From the UHGV virus genome UHGV-2140017: a DNA stretch of 24,660 nt; one strand, written 5' to 3'. Below are positions 1 to 24,093 of the stretch, one piece after another; position 1 is the first letter of the stretch, and every line of letters starts with the position of its first letter. This stretch comes from a virus. A program made the translations under genes and the position numbers. The notes under the pieces are model-generated. The model did no database searches, was not told the origin of the DNA, and was given only the letters and a program-made list of their open reading frames with translations.

Positions 1-333
1 TGCCTCCCGGTAAGTCGCCGCCAGTCCACAGACGACTCGCAATGCGCAAAAAAACATATCAGACTGGCAATGCCCCTCCGCATAGGGGGATTCACCACAC
101 GGATAATTTAGGATGTAGTCATAGGCGGCGTCAATAACTGACACTCTGTCAAAGGCATCATTACGATGCCTTTTGCACAGTGCTAATCACTGGATCTAAT
201 AAGGGGCCAGAGCAAAGCGATTACCCCGGCTACCAGCACGCCATCAGCCAGGATTGACATCATTTGCTGGTGAAGTCGATAGCAACCACCAGAAACAAAA
301 GCACCCCGGCTGCGGCCCAGCGAAGTTTACCGA

Positions 334-759
334 TCACAGGTACTGGTCCAGAGGAAGTTGCAGAGCCTGGGCAATTTTCTTCAGCTGTTTCTCTTCTTCT
401 TCCCCGATGCCGTCGTTATCAGCTACATCAAGACACAGGCAAAGAACATCGACAGCGTCATCCGTCCCGGCAACGTCAGCCAGTTCGCGCAACGCCTGAG
501 CGTTGGCTGAACGTGGTGATGCTTCATAGCGAGCGCGAATATTCGAACTCATCTGGGCAATTTCACCAGCAAATGGCGCAAATGCAGGGAGGGCCGAAAT
601 AGTCTTCTCAAGCACTGCAATCTCTTTTGCATCGCAGGTGCCATCGGCGTATGCAATCGAGTACGCTCCCCAGACCGTGGCTTCTACGGCATCGCGGTTT
701 TCCATTTTTTTCACTTCAACAACGGCTTTACGGGCTTTCTTTTTAAAAATACCGAACAT
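334..759 (-). CDS. TerB-like (tellurite-resistance TerB family) small protein; start taken at internal ATG (MFGIFKKK...)
   Basis: All-helical ~141 aa protein with two D-G-x-x-D/E acidic repeats (YADGTCDAKE, ADNDGIGEEEE) and an MFGIFKKK N-terminus resembling TerB (MSFFDKVK...). GAGA-type RBS before the ATG at 759. Family call is from memory. Confidence 0.5.
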   Translation of the reverse strand: MFGIFKKKARKAVVEVKKMENRDAVEATVWGAYSIAYADGTCDAKEIAVLEKTISALPAFAPFAGEIAQMSSNIRARYEASPRSANAQALRELADVAGTDDAVDVLCLCLDVADNDGIGEEEEKQLKKIAQALQLPLDQYL

Positions 760-890
760 AATTACGTCTCTCTTTAGTGGTGAGCCAACGCTCAGGGATG
801 GTAACCACAAGGCGACGTAATACCGTCCCTCCTGGCTCACCCTGAAAAGTTGTGGTTTTGATTTTTCCGCCGAGCGAGGCGGCTATGAGC

Positions 891-3298: not shown

Positions 3299-4129
3299 TT
3301 ATGCGATATTTATCAAATCAGACACATTTGTCACACGTTTAAGCTGTGAGTCGGTATAACTCTCTTCCTCAAAGCATTTTGTAACAAGACTTTCATAGAA
3401 AGGTTTCCAGCTGTATCGCCAGGTTCGTTCTGGCAGACCAGGCAGCTCAGAGAGCATACCCCTGTAAGCATTTGAAGACTTAGGACGACTATAACCGCGG
3501 CCTTCACAACGTTTACACACTTTGTAGACAGGCACTCCCTGCAGCTCTGACTCTTTACGGTCCAGGGTTTTTCCCGTACCGCCACACTGGCATCGCTTGC
3601 TGATTTTCCCGGTGCCGCCACATTTGAAGCAAAGAACATGGTCAACCTCTTCCACCTGACGTTTTACTTCAAAATCCGAAGGTGACTGCCTGAGGTCTTT
3701 TGCCCATTGCGGTAATCTCATTGTGTAGTGGCTTTTTTCCACCATTGAGGTTTTTTTTATGAAGCCTGAACCAGAACACTTCCTGCAATCTACGCTGTCA
3801 GCTGCAGACGAGGCATAGTCGTTATAAGCGAACCGAGCTATTATCAGCATACACAGAGGGAACTTCTTCCCTGCTGCTTTTCTTATTGATCTAGGCGCTT
3901 TTGATTTTGCATATTCAGCCAACCAACTGACGGATGCCTTTCTGTCGTGTTCGCTGATTCCAGCTTTACCCAAAAACATTGACAGGCCTATTCCTGCCTC
4001 TGCCTGGGTCATCCCCAGTGCGGCCATTACATCTGTCACAGTGAGTTGCTCGCTGGCGGTTGCACGACCGCTATCGGAAATATGCATTCCTTTGGGCGCG
4101 AAAAATTTGGGAATTGATTCAATATTCAT
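3299..4129 (-). CDS. Q: Lambda-type antitermination protein Q (late gene regulator)
   Basis: Colinear with lambda Q from memory: N-terminal SDSGRATASEQLTVTDVMAALGM, central FAYNDYASSAADSVDCRKCSGSG, C-terminal CKRCEGRGYSRPKSSNAYR and PERTWRYSWKPFYESLVTKCFEEES. Start at ATG 4129 (MNIES) has GGAG upstream; the ORF-track start at 4147 is GTG. Confidence 0.85.
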   Translation of the reverse strand: MNIESIPKFFAPKGMHISDSGRATASEQLTVTDVMAALGMTQAEAGIGLSMFLGKAGISEHDRKASVSWLAEYAKSKAPRSIRKAAGKKFPLCMLIIARFAYNDYASSAADSVDCRKCSGSGFIKKTSMVEKSHYTMRLPQWAKDLRQSPSDFEVKRQVEEVDHVLCFKCGGTGKISKRCQCGGTGKTLDRKESELQGVPVYKVCKRCEGRGYSRPKSSNAYRGMLSELPGLPERTWRYSWKPFYESLVTKCFEEESYTDSQLKRVTNVSDLINIA

Positions 4130-4147
4130 GCTCAGTACTCCATACAC

Positions 4148-5203
4148 TCAAGCTTTTACAATGACGCCGATACCCATTACCCGATCCAGAAAACGAGCCC
4201 ACAGCTCTAACTGAGTGCCATATTTCTTTTCGAACTCTGATGTATTGGCGTGTAATTCATCGTGATGCACTCTGCACAGTGGTATCACGAAGAGATCATG
4301 GGCCTTGGTGCCAGTTCCCCCCAGACCATTCCCTATTATATGGTGTGGATCGTCTGATGGTTGCCTGCAGCATTCACATGGCTGAGTTTTAACCCAACGA
4401 GTGTAAACTTCGCAGGTCCAGCGCCGGCGCTTTGGGCGGCGCATAAATGATTCGGGGCTGTTCGGATCGACACTAAGCCTCAGAATGGGTTCACTTTCAA
4501 TCTGAGGTTGCTCAATGAGTACGCTGGCGTCCGCCAGGTCTATGCCCTCAACAAGATCCTGAAGGATTTCACCTGCAGCAAATGACGGGACAATATCGCT
4601 ATCCTTATAAACGGACAGGAAAGGTTCATCAGGCAGTCTTAAGGCCTGTTGCGCCATCGTCTCGGTTATTGCGTCAGCAATGCCGGATTTCACAGCCCAC
4701 CAGCAGAGCTCCGCCATCGATAATTCGCGCTCCTTATTGTATCCAAGGCTGATCAGCACCCTTTCAATCACCCACTGAACCAGATTCTGATAAGCCAGCT
4801 CTGACAACATTTCGGTGGTCTGCTCACGTAATTCATTATCACAATGCCAGCAGACAACCATGGCGCCAGGCGGATGCCGCATAGTCACTAATTCATGGTG
4901 GTGATAGTGGGAATGCGGGTACTGGCACTCTCTGACATGTCGTAGAAGCCAGGCCTCAAGAGCGTTAATTCCACCAGCTGCGTTAATAACCCTCTCATCC
5001 CTCATGAAAAAACGCAGAATGTCCATTTCTGCAAGGGGCTGACGTGCATCGGCGATCCGCCCAGTGGGCAGTGTTTTCATCTTCTCTGGCTGACGCTCTA
5101 TCAGGACACGGCCGCCGGTAAAGAGAGACATCAATTCGCGGCCTGGTTTGAAAAGAACAACGCCCAGGCGCGGCACAATTTCCGGAGTAAGCAATGCTCG
5201 CAC
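4148..5203 (-). CDS. DUF968-family prophage protein (HNH-like zinc-binding C-terminus)
   Basis: C-terminal WVKTQPCECCRQPSDDPHHIIGNGLGGTGTKAHDLFVIPLCRVHHDELH matches my recollection of DUF968 proteins (YdfU-like). GTG start with a G-rich RBS. Confidence 0.55.
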   Translation of the reverse strand: MRALLTPEIVPRLGVVLFKPGRELMSLFTGGRVLIERQPEKMKTLPTGRIADARQPLAEMDILRFFMRDERVINAAGGINALEAWLLRHVRECQYPHSHYHHHELVTMRHPPGAMVVCWHCDNELREQTTEMLSELAYQNLVQWVIERVLISLGYNKERELSMAELCWWAVKSGIADAITETMAQQALRLPDEPFLSVYKDSDIVPSFAAGEILQDLVEGIDLADASVLIEQPQIESEPILRLSVDPNSPESFMRRPKRRRWTCEVYTRWVKTQPCECCRQPSDDPHHIIGNGLGGTGTKAHDLFVIPLCRVHHDELHANTSEFEKKYGTQLELWARFLDRVMGIGVIVKA

Positions 5204-7063: not shown

Positions 7064-7536
7064 TCTGCCTCCAGCACTATTTTCAACTCAAACGGAACAT
7101 CTCCTCCGCAATAGCAGAGCGGGCCAAGGTCAGACATGAGGCTCCACAGGGTCACTGACGTATAGCCATTTTCGTCTGTTATCGGGGGCGAAAAGTCCCC
7201 GAAGATCCTCGGGTGCTGGATTCGATTCTGCTCGTGTTGTTTTTCCAAATGTCTGAGGGAAACTTCATTAAGTTTCACTTTTACGATGCTGTTGAGATTG
7301 ACCGATATTTCTCTGGCCAACAGCGAAGGGGTGATACTGATACCGCGAGAAACCCCGCGGGTGATTGTGATAACACCCTTTTTCTCCAACGCCTTGAGGT
7401 GCGTTGCTGCTGCATTGGGGGACCGGCACCCCAGCATGCCGGTCAGTTCGTAAGTTGTAGGCGGAAAACCATGTTTACGCTGATATTCGATCAGGAGGTC
7501 CAGGACCTCCTGCTGCCTTAAGGTCAAGGAAGTCAT
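7060..7536 (-). CDS. LexA-N-terminal-type DNA-binding domain protein without an S24 peptidase domain
   Basis: LTLRQQEVLDLLIEYQRKHGFPPTTYELTGMLGCRSPNAAATHLKALEKKGVITITRGVSRGISI matches the LexA winged-helix domain; C-terminal ~80 aa unrecognised, no Ser/Lys dyad motifs. ATG 7536 overlaps the methyltransferase stop (ATGA). Confidence 0.6.
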   Translation of the reverse strand: MTSLTLRQQEVLDLLIEYQRKHGFPPTTYELTGMLGCRSPNAAATHLKALEKKGVITITRGVSRGISITPSLLAREISVNLNSIVKVKLNEVSLRHLEKQHEQNRIQHPRIFGDFSPPITDENGYTSVTLWSLMSDLGPLCYCGGDVPFELKIVLEAE

Positions 7537-9503
7537 GCTGCCTGCTCCTCTCTGTTCACGCACATTTCGGGTAAATTGGCGCGAACCAGCGCTTCGGCGA
7601 ACGGCGGCGGGACGGCATTTCCACAGCGCGCAACCTGCTTATCTTTCGCGTATTTCACGCCGCGGTAATCCTGGTCAATGATGTACCACTCGGGGAAGCC
7701 CTGCGCCCGGTAAAGTTCGTGTGGCTGCAGCATGCGCATGCCGATATCAACGATGCGGTAAGTCACTCCGCCGATTTCCACCAGCCCGGTGCATTCCTCT
7801 CCGCAGTATTCCTGCAGGAACGACAGCACCTGCTGCGCTCGCTCTTCGTCATAGTCCTCGACTGCCAGAGTCGTTTTAACCTCGCCTACGTGCTGGCCAC
7901 CAGCAGTGATAGTCGGCATCGGCTCGTCAGTGCGCTGGCCATCGCGGCATGTACCACGGAGCTTGATCAGATGAGACGTAACCATTGCGGCATCAGCCTT
8001 TGTCGTCATGGTTTGCAATGGCTCGCTAACGTCACGTGGCCTGCTCTGCCCAGCGCGACCGCCAACACCAACAATCTGAGCAGTAACCAGCGCATGATGA
8101 TCGACGGTAGTAACTGAATGAGCTGGTTCATCCAAGTCAATACCGGCGCCCTGATAATTCCCGCCATAGTGTTTCGCCAGGAATGCGGATACCAGTTGCG
8201 ATTTACCGCCGCCGCCCGCGGTGATTGTTGCGCTAGGTTCGTCGGCACGGTGTCCGATGCTGGCGCCGAACTGCCGGGCGATAACCGGAGCGACGACACA
8301 GGCGCGCGATTCTTTCATGATGGTGTGAGCGGGTTTATCGAGCGGGCGTGGTTTAGCCTGGTACTCGCTGCCGCCATTGCCAGCCAGGAACGGAGCCAGC
8401 TCTGCTTCAACAATACCCATAGCGTGACCATTCCCGTCCGGGCGCCTGGACGTGCCGGCGGTCACTGTCGGCAACGGATCGGTGACTTCCTGCCCGGTAG
8501 CTCCGGTTCGGAATTTTGTCAGATGAGGTACCGCAATTGCGTAGCCGTGGGTTTTCGTAATCGTCTGTAGCGGATCGTCCAGCGCCTGTCCCCGGAAACA
8601 GTCGTATTTGCCACGTGTCGTTGTGTGATTGCACTTCACAATGAATGGCGAAGCACTTTCGATAACAAAGCGCTGAATGCCGCGGGCAATCCGTTTTAGC
8701 GTATTCTCTGCCAGTGACTTTTTGCGACCGAAGATGCTCGGCGCGGGGATTGACCAGTCTATGCATTCCGCAGCTGTACGCCATGGCTCCAGCTGGCCCG
8801 CCAGCACGGCGGCAGACTTCGGATCCCCGTGCGTGGCTTCCGGCCAGACTATCGGTTTCCCGTCCCGGCGCATCACCATGAAGAACCGCTTACGGATGGT
8901 CGGCGCGCCATAATCGCAGGCGCGCAGCTCGCGAAAATCGACGACATAACCCAGCCCGGCAATTAAGCGCTTGGCCTGCTCGCTATCCGGTGAAAACTCC
9001 AGAAACTCGCAACACTCCACCAGTGCAGGATGATCTGCTGGAATACCGGTGGTAAGCATCCCGACAAATGCATTGAAAGTTTCACCGATGCGTGCCGGAT
9101 CCGGTCGCATTTCTGCCGCGAGTAACGGACCCCATGTTTTGAACTCTTCGACGTTTTCCAGCATCATGACTCGCGGGCCAACATCCAGCGCCCAACGAAT
9201 GACGATCCATGCCAGCCCTCGAATAGCTTTCTCTACTGGTTTAGCACCTTTCGCTTTAGAAAAGTGACGACAGTCAGGCGAGAACCATGCCAGGCCGACA
9301 GGCTTGCCACTGGTAGCGGCTAATGGAGATACATCAAACACACTTTCGCAATAGTGAAGCGTGTCGGGATGGTTAGTGCGGTGCATAGCAACGGCGTTAA
9401 CATCGTGGTTAATCGCGATATCAACGCTACGCCCTATCGCCAGCTCAATACCTGTACTGGCGCCACCGCCACCAGCAAAATTATCGACAATAATCTCACG
9501 CAT
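7533..9503 (-). CDS. DNA (cytosine-5)-methyltransferase, 656 aa, with an expanded repeat-containing variable region
   Basis: C5-MTase motifs in canonical order: I DNFAGGGG, IV-like FSPDCRHFS, VI MMLENV, IX RMLQPHELYRAQGFPEWY, X ARCGNAVPP. Residues ~300-545 hold seven tandem D/E-x-P-x-x-T-[IVM]-T modules. Confidence 0.85.
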   Translation of the reverse strand: MREIIVDNFAGGGGASTGIELAIGRSVDIAINHDVNAVAMHRTNHPDTLHYCESVFDVSPLAATSGKPVGLAWFSPDCRHFSKAKGAKPVEKAIRGLAWIVIRWALDVGPRVMMLENVEEFKTWGPLLAAEMRPDPARIGETFNAFVGMLTTGIPADHPALVECCEFLEFSPDSEQAKRLIAGLGYVVDFRELRACDYGAPTIRKRFFMVMRRDGKPIVWPEATHGDPKSAAVLAGQLEPWRTAAECIDWSIPAPSIFGRKKSLAENTLKRIARGIQRFVIESASPFIVKCNHTTTRGKYDCFRGQALDDPLQTITKTHGYAIAVPHLTKFRTGATGQEVTDPLPTVTAGTSRRPDGNGHAMGIVEAELAPFLAGNGGSEYQAKPRPLDKPAHTIMKESRACVVAPVIARQFGASIGHRADEPSATITAGGGGKSQLVSAFLAKHYGGNYQGAGIDLDEPAHSVTTVDHHALVTAQIVGVGGRAGQSRPRDVSEPLQTMTTKADAAMVTSHLIKLRGTCRDGQRTDEPMPTITAGGQHVGEVKTTLAVEDYDEERAQQVLSFLQEYCGEECTGLVEIGGVTYRIVDIGMRMLQPHELYRAQGFPEWYIIDQDYRGVKYAKDKQVARCGNAVPPPFAEALVRANLPEMCVNREEQAA

Positions 9504-10449
9504 GAGCGGTCCCCCTCATGCTGCCGACCAGCCCACCAGCAACGGTGATGATTTCGCTGGTGGGCACGCGCTCCAGCCACAACTGGTTAATGTGGGCCTT
9601 CAGCTTGTTCTGCTGGGAGAACTCCAGATCCTCTGCGCCTTGTACCTGTCCAAAGACGAGTCCAACTTCCAGTGGCCAGATCCGGGATTCAGGCTCAGCC
9701 AATGATGCAACAGCATCGGGGATGATCACTTCAGGAGACTGAACTGGCGAAACTGGTGACAGGAATTTTCCTGCAGCAAACTCAGCCAGCGCCATACTTG
9801 CGCGCCCTTTTGCTTCCAGCTCAACGCGATCGATATAGCTAAAATGTTCACCGCGCCAGGTCTTATCAAATACCGCAATGGCCCCGGCAAAGAATGCGCT
9901 GGTGGGCTTCTGCTTTTCGTCGGCCGGCACAAACCACGTTGGGAGATCGAATCCAATACGACCACGAATAAACATGATGTGATCGGCATATTCCGGCCAC
10001 CATGTTTCACTTGTTGCTGACTTCACGAGGTAAATGTAACGACCACCCTTTTCACGCTGTTCGGCGGTATAGTTCATAATATGAGTCATGCCAGTGATGG
10101 CTTGTTTTTCATGGTACTGCGAACGGCTGTACGGCGGATTAGCAAAGGCCGCTCCTCCGAGTTCTACCAAACGACCAGACCAGTCCTGCGTCAGCGCATT
10201 ATCTTCAGCGGTATACCATGCCGGACATTTTGTATTGCTGTCGTCTGCAAACAGGTCCAGTACGAGCGGGCCAAACATAGCGTTAATGCCCCAGAACAGC
10301 AGATCTGGTGTCCGCCATTGATCGCCAACCTCTTTCAAATAATGCGCATTACGCTGGCGCTGTTCCTCAAGTGCCAGACAATAAGCGCTGATGGTTTTTG
10401 TTAAAGTTTGCTCTGCTGCGGTCATAGCTTCTTGTACTTCCTGACTCAT
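9496..10449 (-). CDS. Phage Dam-type DNA N6-adenine methyltransferase (PF05869-like) with C-terminal extension
   Basis: W-x-TP...FANPPYS catalytic motif with the flanking pattern of the phage Dam family; ~110 aa unrecognised C-terminal tail. ATG start overlaps the upstream stop (ATGA). Confidence 0.8.
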   Translation of the reverse strand: MSQEVQEAMTAAEQTLTKTISAYCLALEEQRQRNAHYLKEVGDQWRTPDLLFWGINAMFGPLVLDLFADDSNTKCPAWYTAEDNALTQDWSGRLVELGGAAFANPPYSRSQYHEKQAITGMTHIMNYTAEQREKGGRYIYLVKSATSETWWPEYADHIMFIRGRIGFDLPTWFVPADEKQKPTSAFFAGAIAVFDKTWRGEHFSYIDRVELEAKGRASMALAEFAAGKFLSPVSPVQSPEVIIPDAVASLAEPESRIWPLEVGLVFGQVQGAEDLEFSQQNKLKAHINQLWLERVPTSEIITVAGGLVGSMRGTAHA

Positions 10450-12335: not shown

Positions 12336-12887
12336 TTATTTCTCCATACACAAAGATTTATTCGCCACGACGCCCGGAGCTGCACACTCGCGGGCGTCAC
12401 TCTTTTCTGGCTGGCAAAAGACACGGAAAAGCAATGTCAAATGTTCCTGCCATTTCGCCATCACCTGATAACTGTTCTCCTCGATCTGCTCGCGTTCTGC
12501 CTGGTCAATAACACCGTCAGCTGTAGCTTTACGGAGATACTGTGAGTGCTTTCCGATCCACTCGATAGACTCCATCAGGCGCTGGTTAATATCGGCGTTG
12601 TCCACATCCTCAATGTCTGCCAGCGGCACAAAGACCCCGTTCGAGTGGCGCGCTATCGCATTGGCGATATGATTCGTCCCACCAGCACGCTGTAGAACCA
12701 TTGCCCAGCCGAGAGGGAAAATTTGATCACCATCGGCACGTAAGCGGTTAAACAATGCGTTTTCAGTAACGCCAAGCCATTCAGCTGCTTCTGCATACCC
12801 CCCGTCCAAATCAGTGATCGTTTTTTTAATCGCAGCTACCAGCCAAGCCGGCTGCTTATCAACTTTCCATTCTGGTTCTATACCCAC
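12336..12887 (-). CDS. CII-like / CP76-YdaT-type phage regulatory protein (putative)
   Basis: 183-aa ORF 28 nt downstream of cro, the cII position. GTG start preceded by AGGGGT. Family call rests on position and size only. Confidence 0.45.
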   Translation of the reverse strand: MGIEPEWKVDKQPAWLVAAIKKTITDLDGGYAEAAEWLGVTENALFNRLRADGDQIFPLGWAMVLQRAGGTNHIANAIARHSNGVFVPLADIEDVDNADINQRLMESIEWIGKHSQYLRKATADGVIDQAEREQIEENSYQVMAKWQEHLTLLFRVFCQPEKSDARECAAPGVVANKSLCMEK

Positions 12888-12915: not shown

Positions 12916-13146
12916 TTACACCCCTGAAGCGCTATCGTTCTCATTAGCACCCTCGCCATAGAGCAACCAATGAGGATCGCAATGCAGGGCTGAAGACAAT
13001 TCAATGATGTAACGGGGCCTCTTTGTTAAACCCGCCTCGATCGCTTGTAATGACTGCTGGGTCATTCCGACCAATTCAGCCAATTGCGCTTGTGAGAGAT
13101 TCATCTCTTCACGTTTATTCTTTAATCTTTGAGAAATTGATCCCAT
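12916..13146 (-). CDS. cro: Cro-like HTH (XRE-family) repressor
   Basis: 76 aa with LSQAQLAELVGMTQQSLQAIEAG helix-turn-helix; divergent from cI across the operator region; GGAGG RBS. Confidence 0.8.
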   Translation of the reverse strand: MGSISQRLKNKREEMNLSQAQLAELVGMTQQSLQAIEAGLTKRPRYIIELSSALHCDPHWLLYGEGANENDSASGV

Positions 13147-13155
13147 AACACCTCC

Positions 13156-13243: not shown

Positions 13244-13876
13244 ATGAGCCTTGCAGAACGCGTAAAACAAAAAAGAATCGAACTTGGTCTTACTCAAGAG
13301 CAAGCAGCTGAAAAGGCAGGAATAAGGCAACAATCATGGGCCAGCATTGAGGATGGAAAAACTAAAAAGCCTCGCAACATAGTAGGAATAAGCAAAGCAC
13401 TTAAGTGCGACCCAACATGGTTGATGAACGGTGGGCCTTTCATGGCTCTGGCCGATGTGAATTCAAGGAAAGTACCTTTGATCAGTTACGTCCAGGCTGG
13501 GGCGTTAGCAGAAAAACACCCTATTGATGCATTTGATGGTAGCTTCGAATACATCATGACTGACCTTGATATTTCTGAGTTTACTTTTGCACTAAGGATA
13601 GAAGGTGATTCAATGGAGCCTGACTTTAAAGAAGGCGACATTATCATTGTTGATCCCGAGTTAGAGCCCGTTCCGGGCGAGTTTGTTGTTGCTAAAAATG
13701 GTGAAAATGAGGCTACTTTTAAAAAGTACCGTCCTACATTTACCGATATTTCAGGCCGCCAGCAATATGAACTGGTCCCCCTTAATGACGACTACCCCAC
13801 CATTAATAGCTCTGAACGCCCGTTGAAAATTATCGGCGTAATGGTCGAACATAGAATTTACAGGCGAAAAAGGTAA
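13244..13876 (+). CDS. cI: CI-type phage repressor (HTH plus LexA-like S24 peptidase autocleavage domain)
   Basis: N-terminal HTH LTQEQAAEKAGIRQQSWASIEDGKTKKP; C-terminal S24 features (GDSMEP with catalytic Ser, downstream Lys in ATFKKY). GGAGG RBS. Confidence 0.9.
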   Translation: MSLAERVKQKRIELGLTQEQAAEKAGIRQQSWASIEDGKTKKPRNIVGISKALKCDPTWLMNGGPFMALADVNSRKVPLISYVQAGALAEKHPIDAFDGSFEYIMTDLDISEFTFALRIEGDSMEPDFKEGDIIIVDPELEPVPGEFVVAKNGENEATFKKYRPTFTDISGRQQYELVPLNDDYPTINSSERPLKIIGVMVEHRIYRRKR

Positions 13877-13914: not shown

Positions 13915-13976
13915 ACGTCTTTAGTTTCATAAAAAACAATAAATTACAGTTTTTTTAGTATAGTTCATCACTCAAT

Positions 13977-14019
13977 ACAGTTTTGACTGTTGACTCATTA
14001 ACAGTTTTATCTGTATTAT
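13977..14019 (+). promoter_or_regulatory. OL-type operators overlapping a PL-like promoter directed into the 14123 gene
   Basis: ACAGTTTTGACTGT (13977-13990) and ACAGTTTTATCTGT (14001-14014, identical to the first OR site), overlapping duplicated TTGACT -35 hexamers and a TATTAT -10 candidate (~14014-14019). Confidence 0.65.
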
Positions 14020-14532: not shown

Positions 14533-14558
14533 AACAAAAAAGCGCCCCATAGGACGCT
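14533..14558 (-). terminator. Intrinsic terminator (minus strand) downstream of the 156-aa gene
   Basis: Minus-strand hairpin AAGCGTCC-TATG-GGGCGCTT (8 bp with one G-U) followed by TTTTTTGTTG, ~30 nt after the stop at 14590. Confidence 0.55.
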
Positions 14559-14589
14559 TCGCTCTTTAACAATCTGGATATCTTTAACA

Positions 14590-15060
14590 TCAGTAACTGG
14601 CTGGAGGTGCAGAGTCTGTATCAAACACATTCTGACAGGAGGGACATCTGCTTTGATTGAAACTCGCATACATACTCACCTGTTGAGGTTGCAGTATGGA
14701 TACTTTATTTGCAGCAAAACAATGTGGACAAAGATGCACGGTTATTTCCGTATCACCCACAATCTGCTTCTTGGAATACACCAGAGAACCAGAATCAAAC
14801 TTATTCAGAACATAGCCTTCGGTTTGGCTTTTGAAGTCTTCAAACTCTGCAATTTTTGCTTTGAGAAGCATTACCTTCTCGTCACGAGAACGGATGGCAT
14901 CACCAAGAGAGAAACATTCAGCTTGGAGGGTGATTAGTTTGTTCTGAAGCTCAATAGTTGCAGCTTTAACTTCAGCATCAGTTTTCGCGTCATTAATGAC
15001 TTTTGCAAGACCCGCAGTCTCCTTTATCGCGGTCATAGCCGCGGATAGTTCAGCTATCAC
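14590..15060 (-). CDS. Hypothetical coiled-coil protein with C-terminal zinc-ribbon, convergent with the PL transcript
   Basis: N-terminal ~90 aa amphipathic coiled coil (KLITLQAECFSLGDAIRSRDEKVMLLKAKIAEFEDFK); C-terminal CPHC-x28-CPSC pairs. Own terminator. Start ambiguous (GTG at 15060 or ATG at 15036). Confidence 0.55.
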   Translation of the reverse strand: MIAELSAAMTAIKETAGLAKVINDAKTDAEVKAATIELQNKLITLQAECFSLGDAIRSRDEKVMLLKAKIAEFEDFKSQTEGYVLNKFDSGSLVYSKKQIVGDTEITVHLCPHCFAANKVSILQPQQVSMYASFNQSRCPSCQNVFDTDSAPPASY

Positions 15061-15893
15061 TATGAATACTCATCATGTTGTTGGGGATATCCAGATTAAC
15101 CGAATCCTTGTTGTTGGGGAATAACCAGGATCCACCTCGCCTGATGTGGGTAAAAGCAGGCACACAACATGAAAGCGCATTCCATCTTCCATCGGTCGTG
15201 GGGACTGGTTTGTAACTGAAGGAGTGCGCTTCCAGTTGTGAACGGCAATATTCGCAACCGTTGTATGGCACATGCAGCGTTAGCGGCCTGAGAGTTCCCT
15301 TGATCCATGCGCTCTCAGAACAACCGGAAATGTGCAAGCTAAGTGTTTCAGGCACGACGTGCGCCCCACCAGCGCGGCGAAAAGGTGTGACGCCCGGGAA
15401 GAGTCCGGGACACAACGATGAGGGCATTGACGAGCAAGGCACAGAGTCTGGTTCGATTCCAGACGCCAGGATAGTTCTATATCTGGTGATGGGCAGGGAA
15501 AAGGTCCGTTCGATTCGGGCACCGGCAGTGCTCTCTTCGTTGTGGTAATTGCGGCTATGCGCACGTGGCGAGCCAACCCGTTCATGGAATGCGTTTCCGG
15601 GCAGTGTACGTCGCCGGTTATGGCTTAACCCGGCAGGTGGAGGCACCACCGCCACAACCTAGTTAACTGTGCTGTGTGTAGTCTTGGCGGTTATCCGTTT
15701 TCCACTATCCAAAGGAGGAAGAGGATAACGTTCTGATGGATAACCGCCCTTTTTACACAATACACAAGAGCATCACCGGGCGACGGGCTCATTACCCAAT
15801 CCACCCGGGCGGCGTCCTAACCGCAGGTGCTCTTCTGTGTTGTGTACGGAGAAATTCCCGGCGGTGGCAGCCGCCTTTCGAGAGGGTAAAACC
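15061..15893. other. ORF-poor, GC-rich, hairpin- and repeat-dense segment (candidate structured ncRNA or long regulatory leader)
   Basis: Only overlapping R/P/S-rich ORFs in all six frames. Contains a tRNA T-arm-like element with a GGTTCGATTCC loop (~15447-15463), an 11-bp perfect inverted repeat followed by T5, several GC hairpins and imperfect direct repeats. Coordinates +/-2 nt. Confidence 0.3.
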
Positions 15894-16265
15894 ATGAGTA
15901 ATGATCGCATGACAGTCGTGCCTGATTTCCTGGGCGAACTGGACGCCGGCGTATTCATGAACAAGATTGCGGCGGCTCTTAATACCACCGCACTCGGCGT
16001 TCTGAATAACGGCAACAAAGGCAAGGTAGTCCTCACCTTTGATTTTGAGCGTATGGGCAACTCTGTTGAAGAGAAGCGCGTCAAGATTAAGCACAAGCTG
16101 AACTACAGCACCCCTACTCCCCGCGGCAAAGCGTCGGAAGAGGACACCACCGAAACACCAATGTGGGTTAACAAAGGCGGCAAGCTCACTATCCTGCAGG
16201 AGGATCAGGGGCAACTCTTCGGTATCACCGGCACGGTGGACGGAAAGCTTAAAGCGGCTCAGTGA
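15894..16265 (+). CDS. Hypothetical protein (123 aa), first gene of the plus-strand operon
   Basis: ATG (MSNDRMTVVPD...) with GAGAGGG RBS; the ORF-track start at 15837 is GTG. Sits immediately upstream of YfdQ/YfdR-like genes. Confidence 0.55.
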   Translation: MSNDRMTVVPDFLGELDAGVFMNKIAAALNTTALGVLNNGNKGKVVLTFDFERMGNSVEEKRVKIKHKLNYSTPTPRGKASEEDTTETPMWVNKGGKLTILQEDQGQLFGITGTVDGKLKAAQ

Positions 16266-21631: not shown

Positions 21632-22087
21632 ATGACTCTTCCAGTAGACGGCATCAAACTCCATCGCGGCAACTTCGCGGCCATCGGCCAGCAGATTCAA
21701 CCATTGCTGGATGCCGGGCAATGTTTCCGCTTGCAGATTAAGCCATGGCGCGAGAAGCGCAGCCTGTCGCAGAACGCCCTCAGCCACATGTGGTACACGG
21801 AAATCAGCGAATACCTGATTAACTCCGGGCGTACCGACGCAACCCCTGAGTGGGTTAAGCGCAACCTCAAAAAGACCTATCTCGGCTGCGAAGAGGTGAC
21901 CTACACCGACTTCATTACCGGTGAGAAGACCACCACCTGGGAGCCTCGCCACACTGCCGACCTTGATACCGGGGAAATGCACATTTTTCTGGTGAAGGTT
22001 GAAATGTGGTGCGCCCAGTTTGGCCTGGCCCTGACTATCCCAAGCGGTTGCGAGTACCAGCAACTGCGCGATAAGCAGGAGGCGTGA
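21632..22087 (+). CDS. ninB: NinB recombination protein (Orf family)
   Basis: KRSLSQNALSHMWYTEIS aligns with lambda NinB (NRSLDQNRKLWACLGDVS); AAGGAGG RBS; followed by ninE/ninG homologues. Confidence 0.8.
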   Translation: MTLPVDGIKLHRGNFAAIGQQIQPLLDAGQCFRLQIKPWREKRSLSQNALSHMWYTEISEYLINSGRTDATPEWVKRNLKKTYLGCEEVTYTDFITGEKTTTWEPRHTADLDTGEMHIFLVKVEMWCAQFGLALTIPSGCEYQQLRDKQEA

Positions 22088-22257
22088 TGAGCTGCCTTCT
22101 CGCAAAAGTCGTTGAGCGCGGCATCTTCCGCATTCCTGCTCGCCGCAAGCGCAAAGCCGAAGTTAAACCTTCCGACATCCCGACCCTGAAAGGCTATACG
22201 GCCCGTCTGGTCGACAAGAAGTGGCTTTGCCTGAGAGCAAGGAGGCAACATGCTTAA
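22087..22257 (+). CDS. ninE: NinE-like small protein (56 aa), absent from the ORF track
   Basis: MSCLLAKVVERGIFRIPARRKRKAEVKPSDIPTLKGYTARLVDKKWLCLRARRQHA; C-terminal half resembles lambda NinE (...[20 protein letters not shown]). TGATG overlap with ninB stop; 8-nt overlap with ninG. Confidence 0.5.
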   Translation: MSCLLAKVVERGIFRIPARRKRKAEVKPSDIPTLKGYTARLVDKKWLCLRARRQHA

Positions 22258-22831
22258 TCGTACTCAGCGCCGCTGCAAAATCTGTCGGGCGAAGTTTACC
22301 GCGACATTTGAGAATCAACGCTGGTGCTGCCCTGAGCATGGCGCTGAATTCGCCATGCAGGAACTGGAGAAGAAGCGCGAAAAGCAGGCCCAGGCAAAAG
22401 CGAAGAAAGAGCGCGCAACCTGGCGCAAGCGCAAAGCCGCGGTGAAACCTCTCAGGCACTGGGAAGATATGACCCAGCGTGTTGTTAACGACTATATCCG
22501 CGAACGAGACCATGATCTGCCGTGCATCAGCTGCGGCACGTTCGACACGGTTCAGTGGGAGGCCGGACACTACCGCTCCCGCGGGAAAGCATCTCACCTG
22601 CGCTACAACGAGGACAACATTCACAAGCAGTGCCATCACTGCAACGTGCAGATGTCAGGTAACCAGCAGCAGTACCGCATCGGCCTGGTAGAGAAAATCG
22701 GCGCTGAGCGCGTCGAGGTCCTCGAAAACAACAACACCCCTCACCGATACACCATCGAAGAACTGGAAGGCATCAGGCGCCATTACAGCGCGCTACGCCG
22801 TGCGCTCATAAAACAACGGGAGGCCGCATGA
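22250..22831 (+). CDS. ninG: NinG (Rap) recombination endonuclease
   Basis: RRCKICRAKFTATFENQRWCCPEHG and ERDHDLPCISCGT...QWEAGHYRSRG...LRYNEDNIHKQCHHCN are colinear with lambda NinG from memory. Confidence 0.85.
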   Translation: MLNRTQRRCKICRAKFTATFENQRWCCPEHGAEFAMQELEKKREKQAQAKAKKERATWRKRKAAVKPLRHWEDMTQRVVNDYIRERDHDLPCISCGTFDTVQWEAGHYRSRGKASHLRYNEDNIHKQCHHCNVQMSGNQQQYRIGLVEKIGAERVEVLENNNTPHRYTIEELEGIRRHYSALRRALIKQREAA

Positions 22832-23267: not shown

Positions 23268-23404
23268 GCCGTGACGTTATCGAACGCATCCGCGACCGCT
23301 GGATAAAGCTTCGCCTTTTACGCAGCAGCGGCACCGTACTGGTTGACTACCGCATCCTCAAGAATTTCGTTCGCATCTATCAGACCCTGGGAGAGAAAGC
23401 ATGA
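23264..23404 (+). CDS. Hypothetical 46-aa protein, absent from the ORF track
   Basis: MSRDVIERIRDRWIKLRLLRSSGTVLVDYRILKNFVRIYQTLGEKA; ATGA overlaps at both ends link it into the ninG-to-Q2 chain. Confidence 0.35.
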   Translation: MSRDVIERIRDRWIKLRLLRSSGTVLVDYRILKNFVRIYQTLGEKA

Positions 23405-24093
23405 TTAACACTCAATACCTCCAGTATGTTCGCCAGCAGCTGATAGTGGCCACCGCCGATCTGAGCGGCGCGACGAAAGGGCAACTGGTAGCCTTTGCTG
23501 AGAATGCTCAATTCGCGGCGACGGCGCGCAGCCGGGGAAGGAAGAAAGTAGCCGATCCGGTCACCGGGCGCATGGTAAACCCATCAAACCCGCCAATCCC
23601 CGGACAGCAGTCCCGCGCGAAAGGTTCCGCAATCGCCCTCGTTATGCCCGTTGAGTACTCGACAGCCAGCTGGCGCCGCGCGCTGCTGTCGCTGGAAGAG
23701 CATCAGAAAGCGTGGCTGCTCTGGAACTACAGCGACAATATCCGCTGGGAGAACCAGGAGACGATCACCCGGTGGGCATGGGAGCAATTCAAAGAAAAGC
23801 TGGCCGGTGTGCGCATTGCAAAGAAAACAGTCGATCGCCTGCGTCAGCTTATCTGGCTGGCGGCGCAGGATGTGAAAGCCGAGCTGGCAGGCCGGGAGAC
23901 TTATGAATACCAAAAGCTTGCTTCTGTGGTCGGCGTGACCCCGAAGAACTGGTCAGAAACGTTTACGGAGCGGTGGGAGGAGATGAAAAGGACCTTGCTG
24001 AGCCTTGATAGCGATTCTCTTTTGCAGGTTACGCGATCACGTTCACAACAAAAGGCGACAAATTTAGACTCAAGTCTTGCAAAACTGGATTAA
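23401..24093 (+). CDS. Putative Q-like late antiterminator (QuuQ-type by position and size), cysteine-free
   Basis: 230-aa W-rich protein in the Q position: after ninB-ninE-ninG, directly upstream of a promoter-like element and a hairpin+T6 terminator. No cysteines, so not a lambda/82/21-type zinc-finger Q. Possible C-terminal HTH (QKLASVVGVTPKNWSETF). Confidence 0.4.
   Translation: MINTQYLQYVRQQLIVATADLSGATKGQLVAFAENAQFAATARSRGRKKVADPVTGRMVNPSNPPIPGQQSRAKGSAIALVMPVEYSTASWRRALLSLEEHQKAWLLWNYSDNIRWENQETITRWAWEQFKEKLAGVRIAKKTVDRLRQLIWLAAQDVKAELAGRETYEYQKLASVVGVTPKNWSETFTERWEEMKRTLLSLDSDSLLQVTRSRSQQKATNLDSSLAKLD

Follow-up and report, generated by a model that had tools for sequence, protein, structure and literature searches.

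What occupies the gap of about 0.8 kb in the early region of the virus genome UHGV-2140017, and is it a decayed gene, a decayed tRNA or a functional element? The window analyzed here, that is, the whole stretch of 24,660 nucleotides (nt) from this genome, contains a lambdoid immunity region, and the segment under study spans positions 15061-15893, between a gene on the opposite strand and a yfdP-like open reading frame (ORF; 15894-16265) that matches phrog_204. The segment is neither a decayed gene nor a decayed tRNA. It consists of six sequence modules, four of which are RNA modules with covariation support; these modules are conserved and covary as RNA, all on the plus strand, and the whole 606-nt RNA folds better than shuffled sequences (z -3.25). 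A preliminary description made from the letters alone had raised a structured non-coding RNA as one possibility and proposed the alignment of homologues as a check; such alignments reveal compensatory base changes in several modules. We consider it moderately probable that the segment is an untranslated structured RNA array, processed by RNases III and E, in the repressor-controlled early ('PL-side') operon of a phage in which no N was found.

The array contains a core RNA motif of about 170 nt (15253-15423, plus strand), defined by covariation and by a covariance model, R1. Based on alignments of 35 and 33 cores, the motif comprises helix P1 (15259-15264/15274-15279, with the loop UAUGGCACAUG), helix P2 with a variable tip, helix P3/P3b, the loop of which reads CCCACCA in the window and YUCACCA across the alignments, and helix P4 (15393-15397/15405-15409), with the loop GAAGAGU in the window and GAAGAGN across the alignments. 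Helix P4 is the CCCGG-N7-CCGGG hairpin of the preliminary description, which lies at 15393-15409, one base off the position given there, and had not been recognized as part of a conserved core. In addition, there is a pseudoknot, PK2, between CACC of the P3b loop and GGUG, and a candidate pseudoknot, PK1, pairing GCACAU with AUGUGC.

The homologous sequences came from two pattern scans of IMG/VR, which matched at least 119 and at least 120 contigs, and all loci, contexts and cores counted in this work are those among the matches listed. Part of the 'invariance' in the first alignment arises by construction because the pattern of the first scan contained AATGTGCAAGC and GGCGA...GGTGTGAC; the second scan avoided those positions. 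The core helices are paired in 95.6-97.2% of the alignment cells, as opposed to 27-45% in slid controls, 13 pairs show changes on both sides, and the values seen for the paired fraction, the covariation score and the number of double-change pairs were not attained in any of 500 shuffles. G-U pairs are abundant (for example, U-G in 33 of 33 sequences at P1) and correspond to A-C mismatches on the other strand, which identifies the plus strand as that of the core. The PK2 pairing changes from C-G to A-U in 23 of the 137 unique cores and is never mixed, a double change that may be a single inherited event, and PK1 stays a proposal because it displays no compensatory changes, only three single-sided variants. 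Single-sequence folding of the core together with the adjacent module A1 is not significant (z -0.88), and the support is comparative alone.

Model R1 recovers the core as a single copy in the window, with full-length model coverage, 137.6 bits and an E-value of 3.7e-45, a score that is partly circular because the window sequence is one of the 35 sequences from which the model was built. Elsewhere, R1 scores 138.1 bits in P1, 132.8 in Stx2a_1447, 132.7 in mEp460 and 118.5 in SopranoGao, and copies of comparable score are present in LV-2017, SPC32H, D6 and an Stx2c phage. The core is unannotated in P1, P7, D6, Stx2a and Stx2c phages, phiV10 and SPN1S, and the annotation under the core hits in RefSeq Escherichia coli genomes is 'none'. 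A scan of one genome per GTDB species yielded 12 core hits, 11 of them in Enterobacteriaceae; the twelfth, a single exact core pattern match on a 1.7-kb contig (L140, 1753 bp) of a metagenome-assembled genome labelled Bacillota, is probably a mis-binned enterobacterial phage fragment and not an extension of the host range. No description of the core was found in Rfam 15 or, with core sequence strings and the topic as queries, in the searchable literature, and neither the Pas sRNA preprint nor the P1 delta-hfq transcriptome paper contains anything on the core region. As far as these sources show, the core motif, including its presence in P1 and Stx phages, appears to be new, as do the covarying cloverleaf and T-arm-mimic modules described below.

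The compact size of the core, its covarying helices, near-invariant junction and loop nucleotides and supported pseudoknot are also features of ligand-sensing riboswitches and self-cleaving ribozymes, and in some phages the core is located directly before an ORF (ban in P1, small ORFs in L028 and L081). We nevertheless regard this explanation as very unlikely given that Rfam models of these classes give no match even at E <= 10, the elements downstream of the core are functionally unrelated (tRNA-like modules, ban, yfdP or nothing), and no conserved alternative pairing with a terminator or a Shine-Dalgarno sequence was seen. Several other likenesses picked by eye, namely to RNase P CR-I, to T-box/tRNA 3'-end pairing and to integron attC cores, were dropped as untested or inconsistent, and so was a likeness to the RfaH ops element, the GGTAGC part of which is absent from the window's own core.

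The description of the segment as ORF-poor is essentially correct. Mechanical ORFs can be drawn, for example one of 201 amino acids at 15050-15655 on the minus strand, but they have neither a conserved frame nor an informative family match. None of them matches a PHROG profile save for one weak match to a function-less family, and no frame is open across the 35 homologous cores, six of which lack an open frame altogether while the others disagree on the frame; the core lengths, 162 to 194 nt, are not tied to multiples of three. A 53-amino-acid ORF with an Arg-rich tail (15736-15897) was considered and rejected, as it starts inside the terminator hairpin described below and is frameshifted in relatives. 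A protein-coding gene or pseudogene would be recognizable by a conserved frame or a family match, and neither was found in the segment beyond that weak match; the frameshifted pseudogene that had been named among the outcomes refuting the initial idea was thus not recovered. The Rfam covariance search that had also been proposed detected no family in the segment at gathering thresholds (Rfam 15), and at E <= 10 it detected only DicF, with 16.9 bits.

The core is embedded among modules closed by long stems. Module A1 (15162-15241, plus strand) is a 19-bp stem (15163-15183/15221-15240) of the form CACAAC...GUUGUG with a variable tip. In alignment A5, which includes 20 sequences and pairs window positions 15158-15245 with L238:2669-2762 from the Qin prophage, the 19-bp stem is kept and the tips differ; three of the 19 predicted pairs show compensatory changes. 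Module B (15411-15544, plus strand) has a closing stem at 15411-15432/15523-15544, a fold of -58.2 kcal/mol (z -3.62) and, within it, two T-arm mimics, at 15446-15464 and 15504-15520, each with the loop UUCGAUU. In alignment A2 (10 sequences), the closing stem is conserved with G-U/A-U transitions and a middle hairpin contains four compensatory pairs. Module E (15754-15893, plus strand; -60.6 kcal/mol, z -3.55) consists of a closing stem of more than 20 bp at about 15754-15846 (ACACAAGAGCA.../...UGCUCUUCUGUGUUGUGU) around two hairpins, followed by a hairpin at 15859-15876, the Shine-Dalgarno-like sequence GAGAGGG and the start codon of the yfdP-like ORF at 15894; alignment A6 (12 sequences) shows compensatory changes in six of 42 predicted pairs. 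Throughout, the closing stems are conserved while the tips differ between phages, and at least one stem with the 3' strand GCUCU...GUUGUG is found downstream of the core in 76 of 98 distinct contexts.

The ACACAAC/GTTGTGT motifs that had been reported to recur in the segment are the bases of these closing stems of about 20 bp, a connection missed previously. CACAAC/GTTGTG occurs six times in 15163-15844; over the whole window its 14 matches are close to the 12.8 expected by chance, but six of the 14 fall within 2.8% of the window, where we calculate that about 0.4 would be expected. At the left end of the segment, the imperfect direct repeats noted previously were also recovered (TGTTGTTGGGGA at 15076-15087 and 15109-15120) and extend to 17-mers. 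These repeats, TTGTTGGGGATATCCAG and TTGTTGGGGAATAACCAG, 33 nt apart, belong to block A0 (15077-15161), which is conserved with sharp borders in seven loci with differing left and right flanks and is a candidate for a protein-binding or divergent control region, or for the 5' part of the RNA. The -35/-10 candidates that we picked by eye in block A0 were all poor and were discarded.

Two elements of the array resemble parts of a tRNA. With respect to the T-arm, defined as a 5-bp stem with a UUCRANY loop, two copies are present: TCTGG-TTCGATT-CCAGA at 15447-15463, just where the preliminary description had placed it, and a second one at 15504-15520 that it had overlooked. The string GTTCGATTC occurs twice on the plus strand in the segment (15451 and 15508) and once elsewhere on the minus strand, compared with a chance expectation of 0.17 per whole window, and none of 100 shuffles reached three matches. 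Across alignment A2, the T-loops of module B differ solely by G or A at the position equivalent to tRNA position 57 (UUCGAUU vs UUCAAUU). The other element is a cloverleaf tRNA-like module, C (15539-15659, plus strand). Besides an 8-bp acceptor-like stem (GUUGUGGU/GCCACAAC), it has a D-like hairpin, a long arm whose tip varies and a variable-arm hairpin, and its T-like hairpin, GGUGG-AGGCA-CCACC, abuts the 3' acceptor strand. In alignment A7, which encompasses 14 sequences (window 15537-15666, L238:2953-3087 from Qin and 12 others), the T-like hairpin GGAGGCACC is present and compensatory changes affect 10 of 24 predicted pairs. The single-sequence fold of module C is not significant (z -0.08), and here too the support is comparative alone.

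These elements are not tRNA genes. ARAGORN predicts no tRNA or tmRNA genes in the window, the Rfam tRNA model (RF00005) has no match over 14900-16100 even at E <= 10, and no structure was found that combines a cloverleaf with a 7-nt anticodon loop and a score above the model threshold; module C has no anticodon arm or loop and no CCA, and its D and T loops are not tRNA-like. Nor do the data support the degraded attachment-site or tRNA remnant that had been proposed: the T-arm hairpins are conserved within a stem-enclosed module and vary as T-loops do, the neighbouring cloverleaf covaries, and there is no att-like or integrase context around the segment.

Still, relatives place real tRNAs in this slot. 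The position of module C is taken in SPC32H by a genuine tRNA-Arg(UCU) (tct), which starts where the closing stem ends, in LASTA a tRNA-Arg follows directly after a copy of module C, and 35 of 123 loci contain a same-strand tRNA inside the array. Four loci carry anticodon-less tRNA-like genes in the slot (L031:1800-1925, L034:4364-4488 on the minus strand, L049:3220-3344 and L112:1309-1433 on the minus strand) that score 29-40 bits against the Rfam tRNA model. These genes have normal acceptor, D and T arms, and a conserved 60-68-nt insertion replaces the anticodon and the variable region; ARAGORN misses them. Phage D6 (L007) has two copies of module C, at 320-451 and 1500-1622, that flank the tciA/B genes, and the same region contains tRNA-Ser and tRNA-Met/Ile2.

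Phage tRNAs counter tRNA-targeting defences, and the array might accordingly make tRNA-mimic decoys, with the T-arm mimics, the cloverleaf and perhaps also the core acting to titrate or divert host factors recognizing the tRNA elbow or the acceptor/T-helix (candidates are tRNA-cleaving or tRNA-modifying defence toxins, RNase P and TruB/TrmA), thereby protecting early phage translation. The two exact T-loop heptamers in 5-bp stems, the coaxial acceptor-like and T-like helices of the cloverleaf, the location of the array in an early, repressor-controlled operon and the exchange of its modules with a real tRNA-Arg(UCU) or anticodon-less tRNA-like genes, or their position after tRNA-Ile2, would all fit this idea. 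However, T-loops often serve a purely structural purpose in large RNAs, in some phages the core occurs without any tRNA-like module, and no defence or anti-defence gene is consistently adjacent, so that a decoy function appears quite unlikely.

Between modules C and E, the segment contains a strong intrinsic terminator that had gone unnoticed. This terminal module (15668-15755, plus strand) consists of a single-stranded lead, GCUGUGUGUAGUCUUGG, a GC-rich 14-bp hairpin (15686-15699/15735-15748) and a U-run (15750-15754), and folds with -35.6 kcal/mol (z -5.01); it is an intrinsic terminator and possibly a small RNA (sRNA). The module is DicF-like but not DicF, given the 16.9 bits compared with a gathering score of 48 and a different single-stranded lead. 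Relatives of the module reach 28-30 bits against the DicF model, still below the threshold. A regular-expression search over 98 distinct downstream contexts detected a terminator of this type in 38, and in 29 of these the conserved lead is present as well.

The homologous pieces are distributed among phages in a mosaic fashion. In BLAST searches, copies with 75-96% identity turned up in enterobacterial phages of very different kinds, within gaps of 0.6-1 kb that bear no annotation: directly after cI in Stx2a/Stx2c, mEp460/SfV-like, phiNP and Klebsiella prophages, after lysis genes in LASTA and SopranoGao, among head genes in SPN1S and SPC32H, between tail genes in ZX4, and also in the P1-like D6. 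None of the modules is present in the gap that precedes yfdP in CPS-53 of E. coli K-12. The breakpoints between phages, at 15162, about 15405-15411, about 15537-15545 and 15658, lie at the module edges, and the segment is therefore a string of modules. The junction between modules that had been suspected in this place is thus real in an unexpected sense, with the breaks located at conserved closing stems. The array orientation always matches that of the flanking tRNAs and genes, and the homologues are co-linear with promoters, tRNAs and terminators; the arrays of LASTA and SPC32H have promoter-like sequences upstream and terminators downstream.

That breakpoints coincide with short inverted repeats, and that hypothetical ORFs are annotated over the region in some relatives, might be taken as signs that the region is what decay has left of a frameshifted gene, a tRNA cluster or an att site, or that it acts at the DNA level, for example as a recombination boundary or a single-strand origin, with no RNA function. 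We consider this highly improbable: the helices are preserved by compensatory changes and contain strand-specific G-U pairs, the loops are 80-95% identical across unrelated phage types, there is no conserved frame, the orientation is invariably that of the flanking tRNAs and genes, and the Qin homologues are transcribed and processed (PMC10448788).

The Qin dicBF operon is the experimentally studied relative from which the functional part of our interpretation is extrapolated. In Qin, DicF is produced from the dicBp transcript as a 190-nt species with an RNase III-dependent 5' end and as one of 53 nt for which RNase E is needed (PMC10448788). We found that the operon contains, in this order, a closing stem homologous to A1 (L238:2669-2762), dicF 137 nt further on, and a module C cloverleaf (L238:2953-3087, corresponding to NC_000913 1649452-1649586) just before dicB; the acceptor-like stem of this cloverleaf differs from that of the window by compensatory changes. 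If 190 nt are counted back from the 3' end of DicF, the cut would fall in the 3' strand of the Qin closing stem (our own arithmetic, based on the size), and A1 of the window would thus be homologous to the stem that holds the RNase III cut. That this Qin stem is one instance of a repeated junction appears to be new by the same standard as the core, and the interpretation of the Qin region as a stem module and a cloverleaf is our own proposal from sequence comparison. The DicF-like character of such prophage regions and the processing of DicF are already known; 'dicF-like regions' of prophages were reportedly recognized by Faubladier and Bouche in 1994.

The two systems share an early operon under the immunity repressor (DicA in Qin, cI in the window), the CACAAC/GUUGUG closing stem (A5), the cloverleaf (A7) and a terminator-ended small RNA, putative in the window, with a UUGGCGG...CCGCCCUUUUU hairpin; they differ in that Qin lacks the core motif and has the cloverleaf after the terminator. 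A terminator-ended RNA might be released by RNases III and E in the window as well, where the early-operon position and the hairpin with a U-run are present and a homologous stem of the RNase III type lies upstream.

By analogy with Qin, we propose the following tentative model of the array. The plus strand would be transcribed from a repressor-controlled early promoter, and the modules would be co-transcribed, each folding separately, in the order stem A1, pseudoknotted core, stem B with its two T-arm mimics, cloverleaf C, DicF-like terminator, stem E and the yfdP-like gene. RNase III is predicted to cut the CACAAC/GUUGUG closing stems of about 20 bp and RNase E the AU-rich spacer before the terminator hairpin, and these cuts would yield the core RNA, the tips and the tRNA-like piece as stable products, together with a DicF-like small RNA that ends at the terminator. 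Read-through into yfdP and later early genes would be limited by the terminator, and the conserved closing stems could serve as homology patches for the exchange of modules by recombination.

Other known systems resemble the array in part. The leader of the P1 ban operon (Pban, dicF-like region, trnA, trnT, tciABC, trnI, ban) shares the core (138.1 bits at NC_005856 71018-71211, between trnI and ban), closing-stem modules, a dicF-like terminator, repressor control and interleaved tRNAs; unlike in the window, no stem or cloverleaf modules come after the P1 core, which only a short leader separates from ban. The P1 record annotates a 'dicF-like region' in this leader and no feature for the core itself. 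In the P1 locus (L130, core at 2517-2710), CACAAC-type stems start at 560-640, after the dicF-like region, and at about 1003, right after trnT, and just past the core is the sequence UUUCUGGUGA, identical to the first 10 nt of DicF. Precursors punctuated by tRNAs are well known, such as rrn operons with RNase III stems and spacer tRNAs and the T4 tRNA cluster with the stable RNAs C and D; the array has in common with these and with tRNA genes the T-arm heptamer loops, the cloverleaf with acceptor-like and T-like helices end to end, long flanking stems similar to rRNA processing stems and, in relatives, real tRNAs in the slot. The large ornate RNAs ROOL and GOLLD are likewise phage-borne, multi-domain, longer than 500 nt and often located beside or interleaved with tRNA genes, but have one fixed architecture, as opposed to the exchangeable modules at this locus, and another host range, that of the locus being Enterobacteriaceae; the models of ROOL, GOLLD and other large ornate RNAs give no match in the window at gathering thresholds or at E <= 10, and none in 10 related loci.

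Scans against PHROG and Pfam place the array in a lambdoid layout. The genes for CII (12336-12887, minus strand), Cro (12916-13146, minus strand) and CI (13244-13876, plus strand) are followed, downstream of cI, by two OL-type operators ACAG-N6-CTGT on the plus strand, at 13976 and 14000 (repeat family D2), with the same sequence as the OR sites at 13155 and 13200. A PL-like sigma-70 promoter, TTGACT-18-TATTAT (13990-14019, plus strand), scored 10/12 in the promoter scan and is the nearest predicted promoter able to drive the RNA array; we infer that it does so. Rightwards of this promoter are a 77-amino-acid ORF, a convergent moron (14590-15060, minus strand), the 0.8-kb gap and an operon of yfdP, yfdQ (DUF2303), yfdR and a ParB-like gene. 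The closest database record, Klebsiella phage Kp4866-6, is 95.5% identical over 94% of the query (BLAST).

In Stx2a_1447, an OL/PL-type promoter is located about 40 nt upstream of the core and the segment ends at a terminator before the first early gene, in agreement with the long regulatory leader that had been suggested for the window. On the PR side, the same genome (L001) has a C4 antisense RNA (582-669, minus strand, 83.6 bits) and isrK (694-770, minus strand, 67 bits), both within an annotated antirepressor ORF.

No N-like protein was found on either side of the immunity region in the window by PHROG or Pfam, Q-like genes being present, and none was found on the PL side of the mEp460/SfV-type and Stx2a_1447 relatives. 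A lambda-type arrangement, with an N-family protein after PL and a boxA-boxB site, was not recognized, the PL-side ORFs of the window having no N-like PHROG or Pfam match. By eye, the P4 loop GAAGAG looks like the lambda boxB loop and UGCUCUUU like the rrn boxA, which we take to be resemblances only.

The absence of a detectable N brings up the most interesting rival explanation, that the core is a cis-acting processive antitermination RNA, an analogue of put though a different RNA, which, once transcribed just past the early promoter, would stand in for the missing N and let RNA polymerase withstand both the DicF-like terminator and Rho along the long untranslated leader. The put RNA of HK022 acts after the early promoter without any protein and consists of two stem-loops in about 70 nt (PMC9378689), which provides a precedent for RNA-only antitermination at the same map position. 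As with put, the core is a cis-encoded structured RNA past the early promoter of a lambdoid phage in which no N was found, with terminators downstream: in Stx2a_1447 it lies about 40 nt after the promoter with a strong terminator before the first gene, and the order in the window is promoter, core, terminator and yfdP, a suggestive arrangement, albeit one of layout alone. The near-invariant core loops also suggest a specific macromolecular partner. The core is nevertheless unlike put in structure, with about 170 nt, four helices and pseudoknots instead of two stem-loops and a short triplex in about 70 nt, and shows no sequence similarity to it. Furthermore, put follows both PL and PR, whereas there is one core copy per phage and none on the PR side of the window. 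The P1 core is far from Pban, past the dicF-like terminator and tRNAs and directly before ban, the arrays of SPC32H and LASTA look like stand-alone units that end at their own terminators, and a recognizable terminator was found within 1 kb in just 38 of 98 contexts. We regard the antiterminator as rather unlikely, the position in P1 and the stand-alone units arguing against its generality; the decoy, the riboswitch or ribozyme, and the decayed-sequence or DNA-element readings are weaker than this one.

A bolder variant, which we put forward tentatively and regard as rather unlikely, is that the core represents a new class of functional phage RNA, an RNA-only antiterminator and anti-Rho device that would replace N in SfV-, ST64B- and Stx2a_1447-type phages and serve the P1 ban operon, or, in a weaker form, a stable regulatory RNA with a specific host protein partner; the exchangeable tRNA-mimic and sRNA modules would surround it, with the RNase III stems acting as processing sites and recombination joints.

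Several observations weigh against the processed array that we favour. Modules B and C both need the hexamer GUUGUG at 15539-15544, B for its closing stem and C for its acceptor-like stem, so that only one of the two stems can be complete at a time. The PL-like promoter is 1.2 kb upstream of the array, with the convergent gene (14590-15060, minus strand) in between, and the promoter scan predicted no sigma-70 promoter in 15061-15250 on either strand. Processing by RNases III and E is extrapolated from one homologous Qin stem, in which the cut was placed by the 190-nt size, and all functional statements rest on this one experimentally studied homologue; the Rfam DicF match (RF00039, 15673-15749, 16.9 bits, E 1.1) is below the gathering score of 48. 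Because the search patterns lay inside the core and many of the sequences are close relatives, the cell counts overstate the number of independent events. Finally, the array explanation does not specifically account for the near-invariance of the core loops.

The remainder of the window includes several features of note. The convergent moron (14590-15060, minus strand) matches phrog_1244, has a CxxC motif near its C terminus and its own terminator (14539-14560, minus strand), just past which is a 19-nt inverted repeat (14363-14381/14510-14528, 89% complementary); in relatives, other minus-strand genes occupy the position of the moron while the neighbouring block A0 is unchanged. Two different Q-like antiterminator genes, at 3299-4147 (minus strand) and 23401-24093 (plus strand), each end one of the divergent operons, and NinB and NinG homologues (21632-22831, plus strand) are on the PL side, after the yfdPQR and ParB-like genes. 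This placement suggests either that the early regions of two prophages have been combined or that the genome layout is unusual. The PR-side operon encompasses three DNA methyltransferase-like genes (1668-2747, 7533-9503 and 9496-10449, all on the minus strand) and two HNH endonuclease genes (891-1391 and 4148-5203). At the window edge, a truncated match to the STnc100 sRNA (1-129, minus strand; Rfam, 53.6 bits vs a gathering score of 47), downstream of a Q-like antiterminator gene, adjoins a TerB-like tellurite-resistance gene (334-840, minus strand).

The findings described here concern a core RNA that is strongly conserved yet unannotated in such well-studied phages as P1, P7, the Stx2 phages, phiV10 and SPN1S. 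The 'dicF-like prophage sequences' recognized 30 years ago gain a structural grammar of closing stems, a tRNA slot, a terminator sRNA and an optional core, and the one mapped RNase III site in Qin is linked to a repeated, conserved type of stem. The family can be tested directly in P1 and E. coli K-12. Should the tRNA mimics turn out to be decoys, they would have a bearing on phage counter-defence, and if the core controls elongation or binds a host factor, this would explain early-left expression in a large group of lambdoid phages that lack N, including Shiga-toxin phages.

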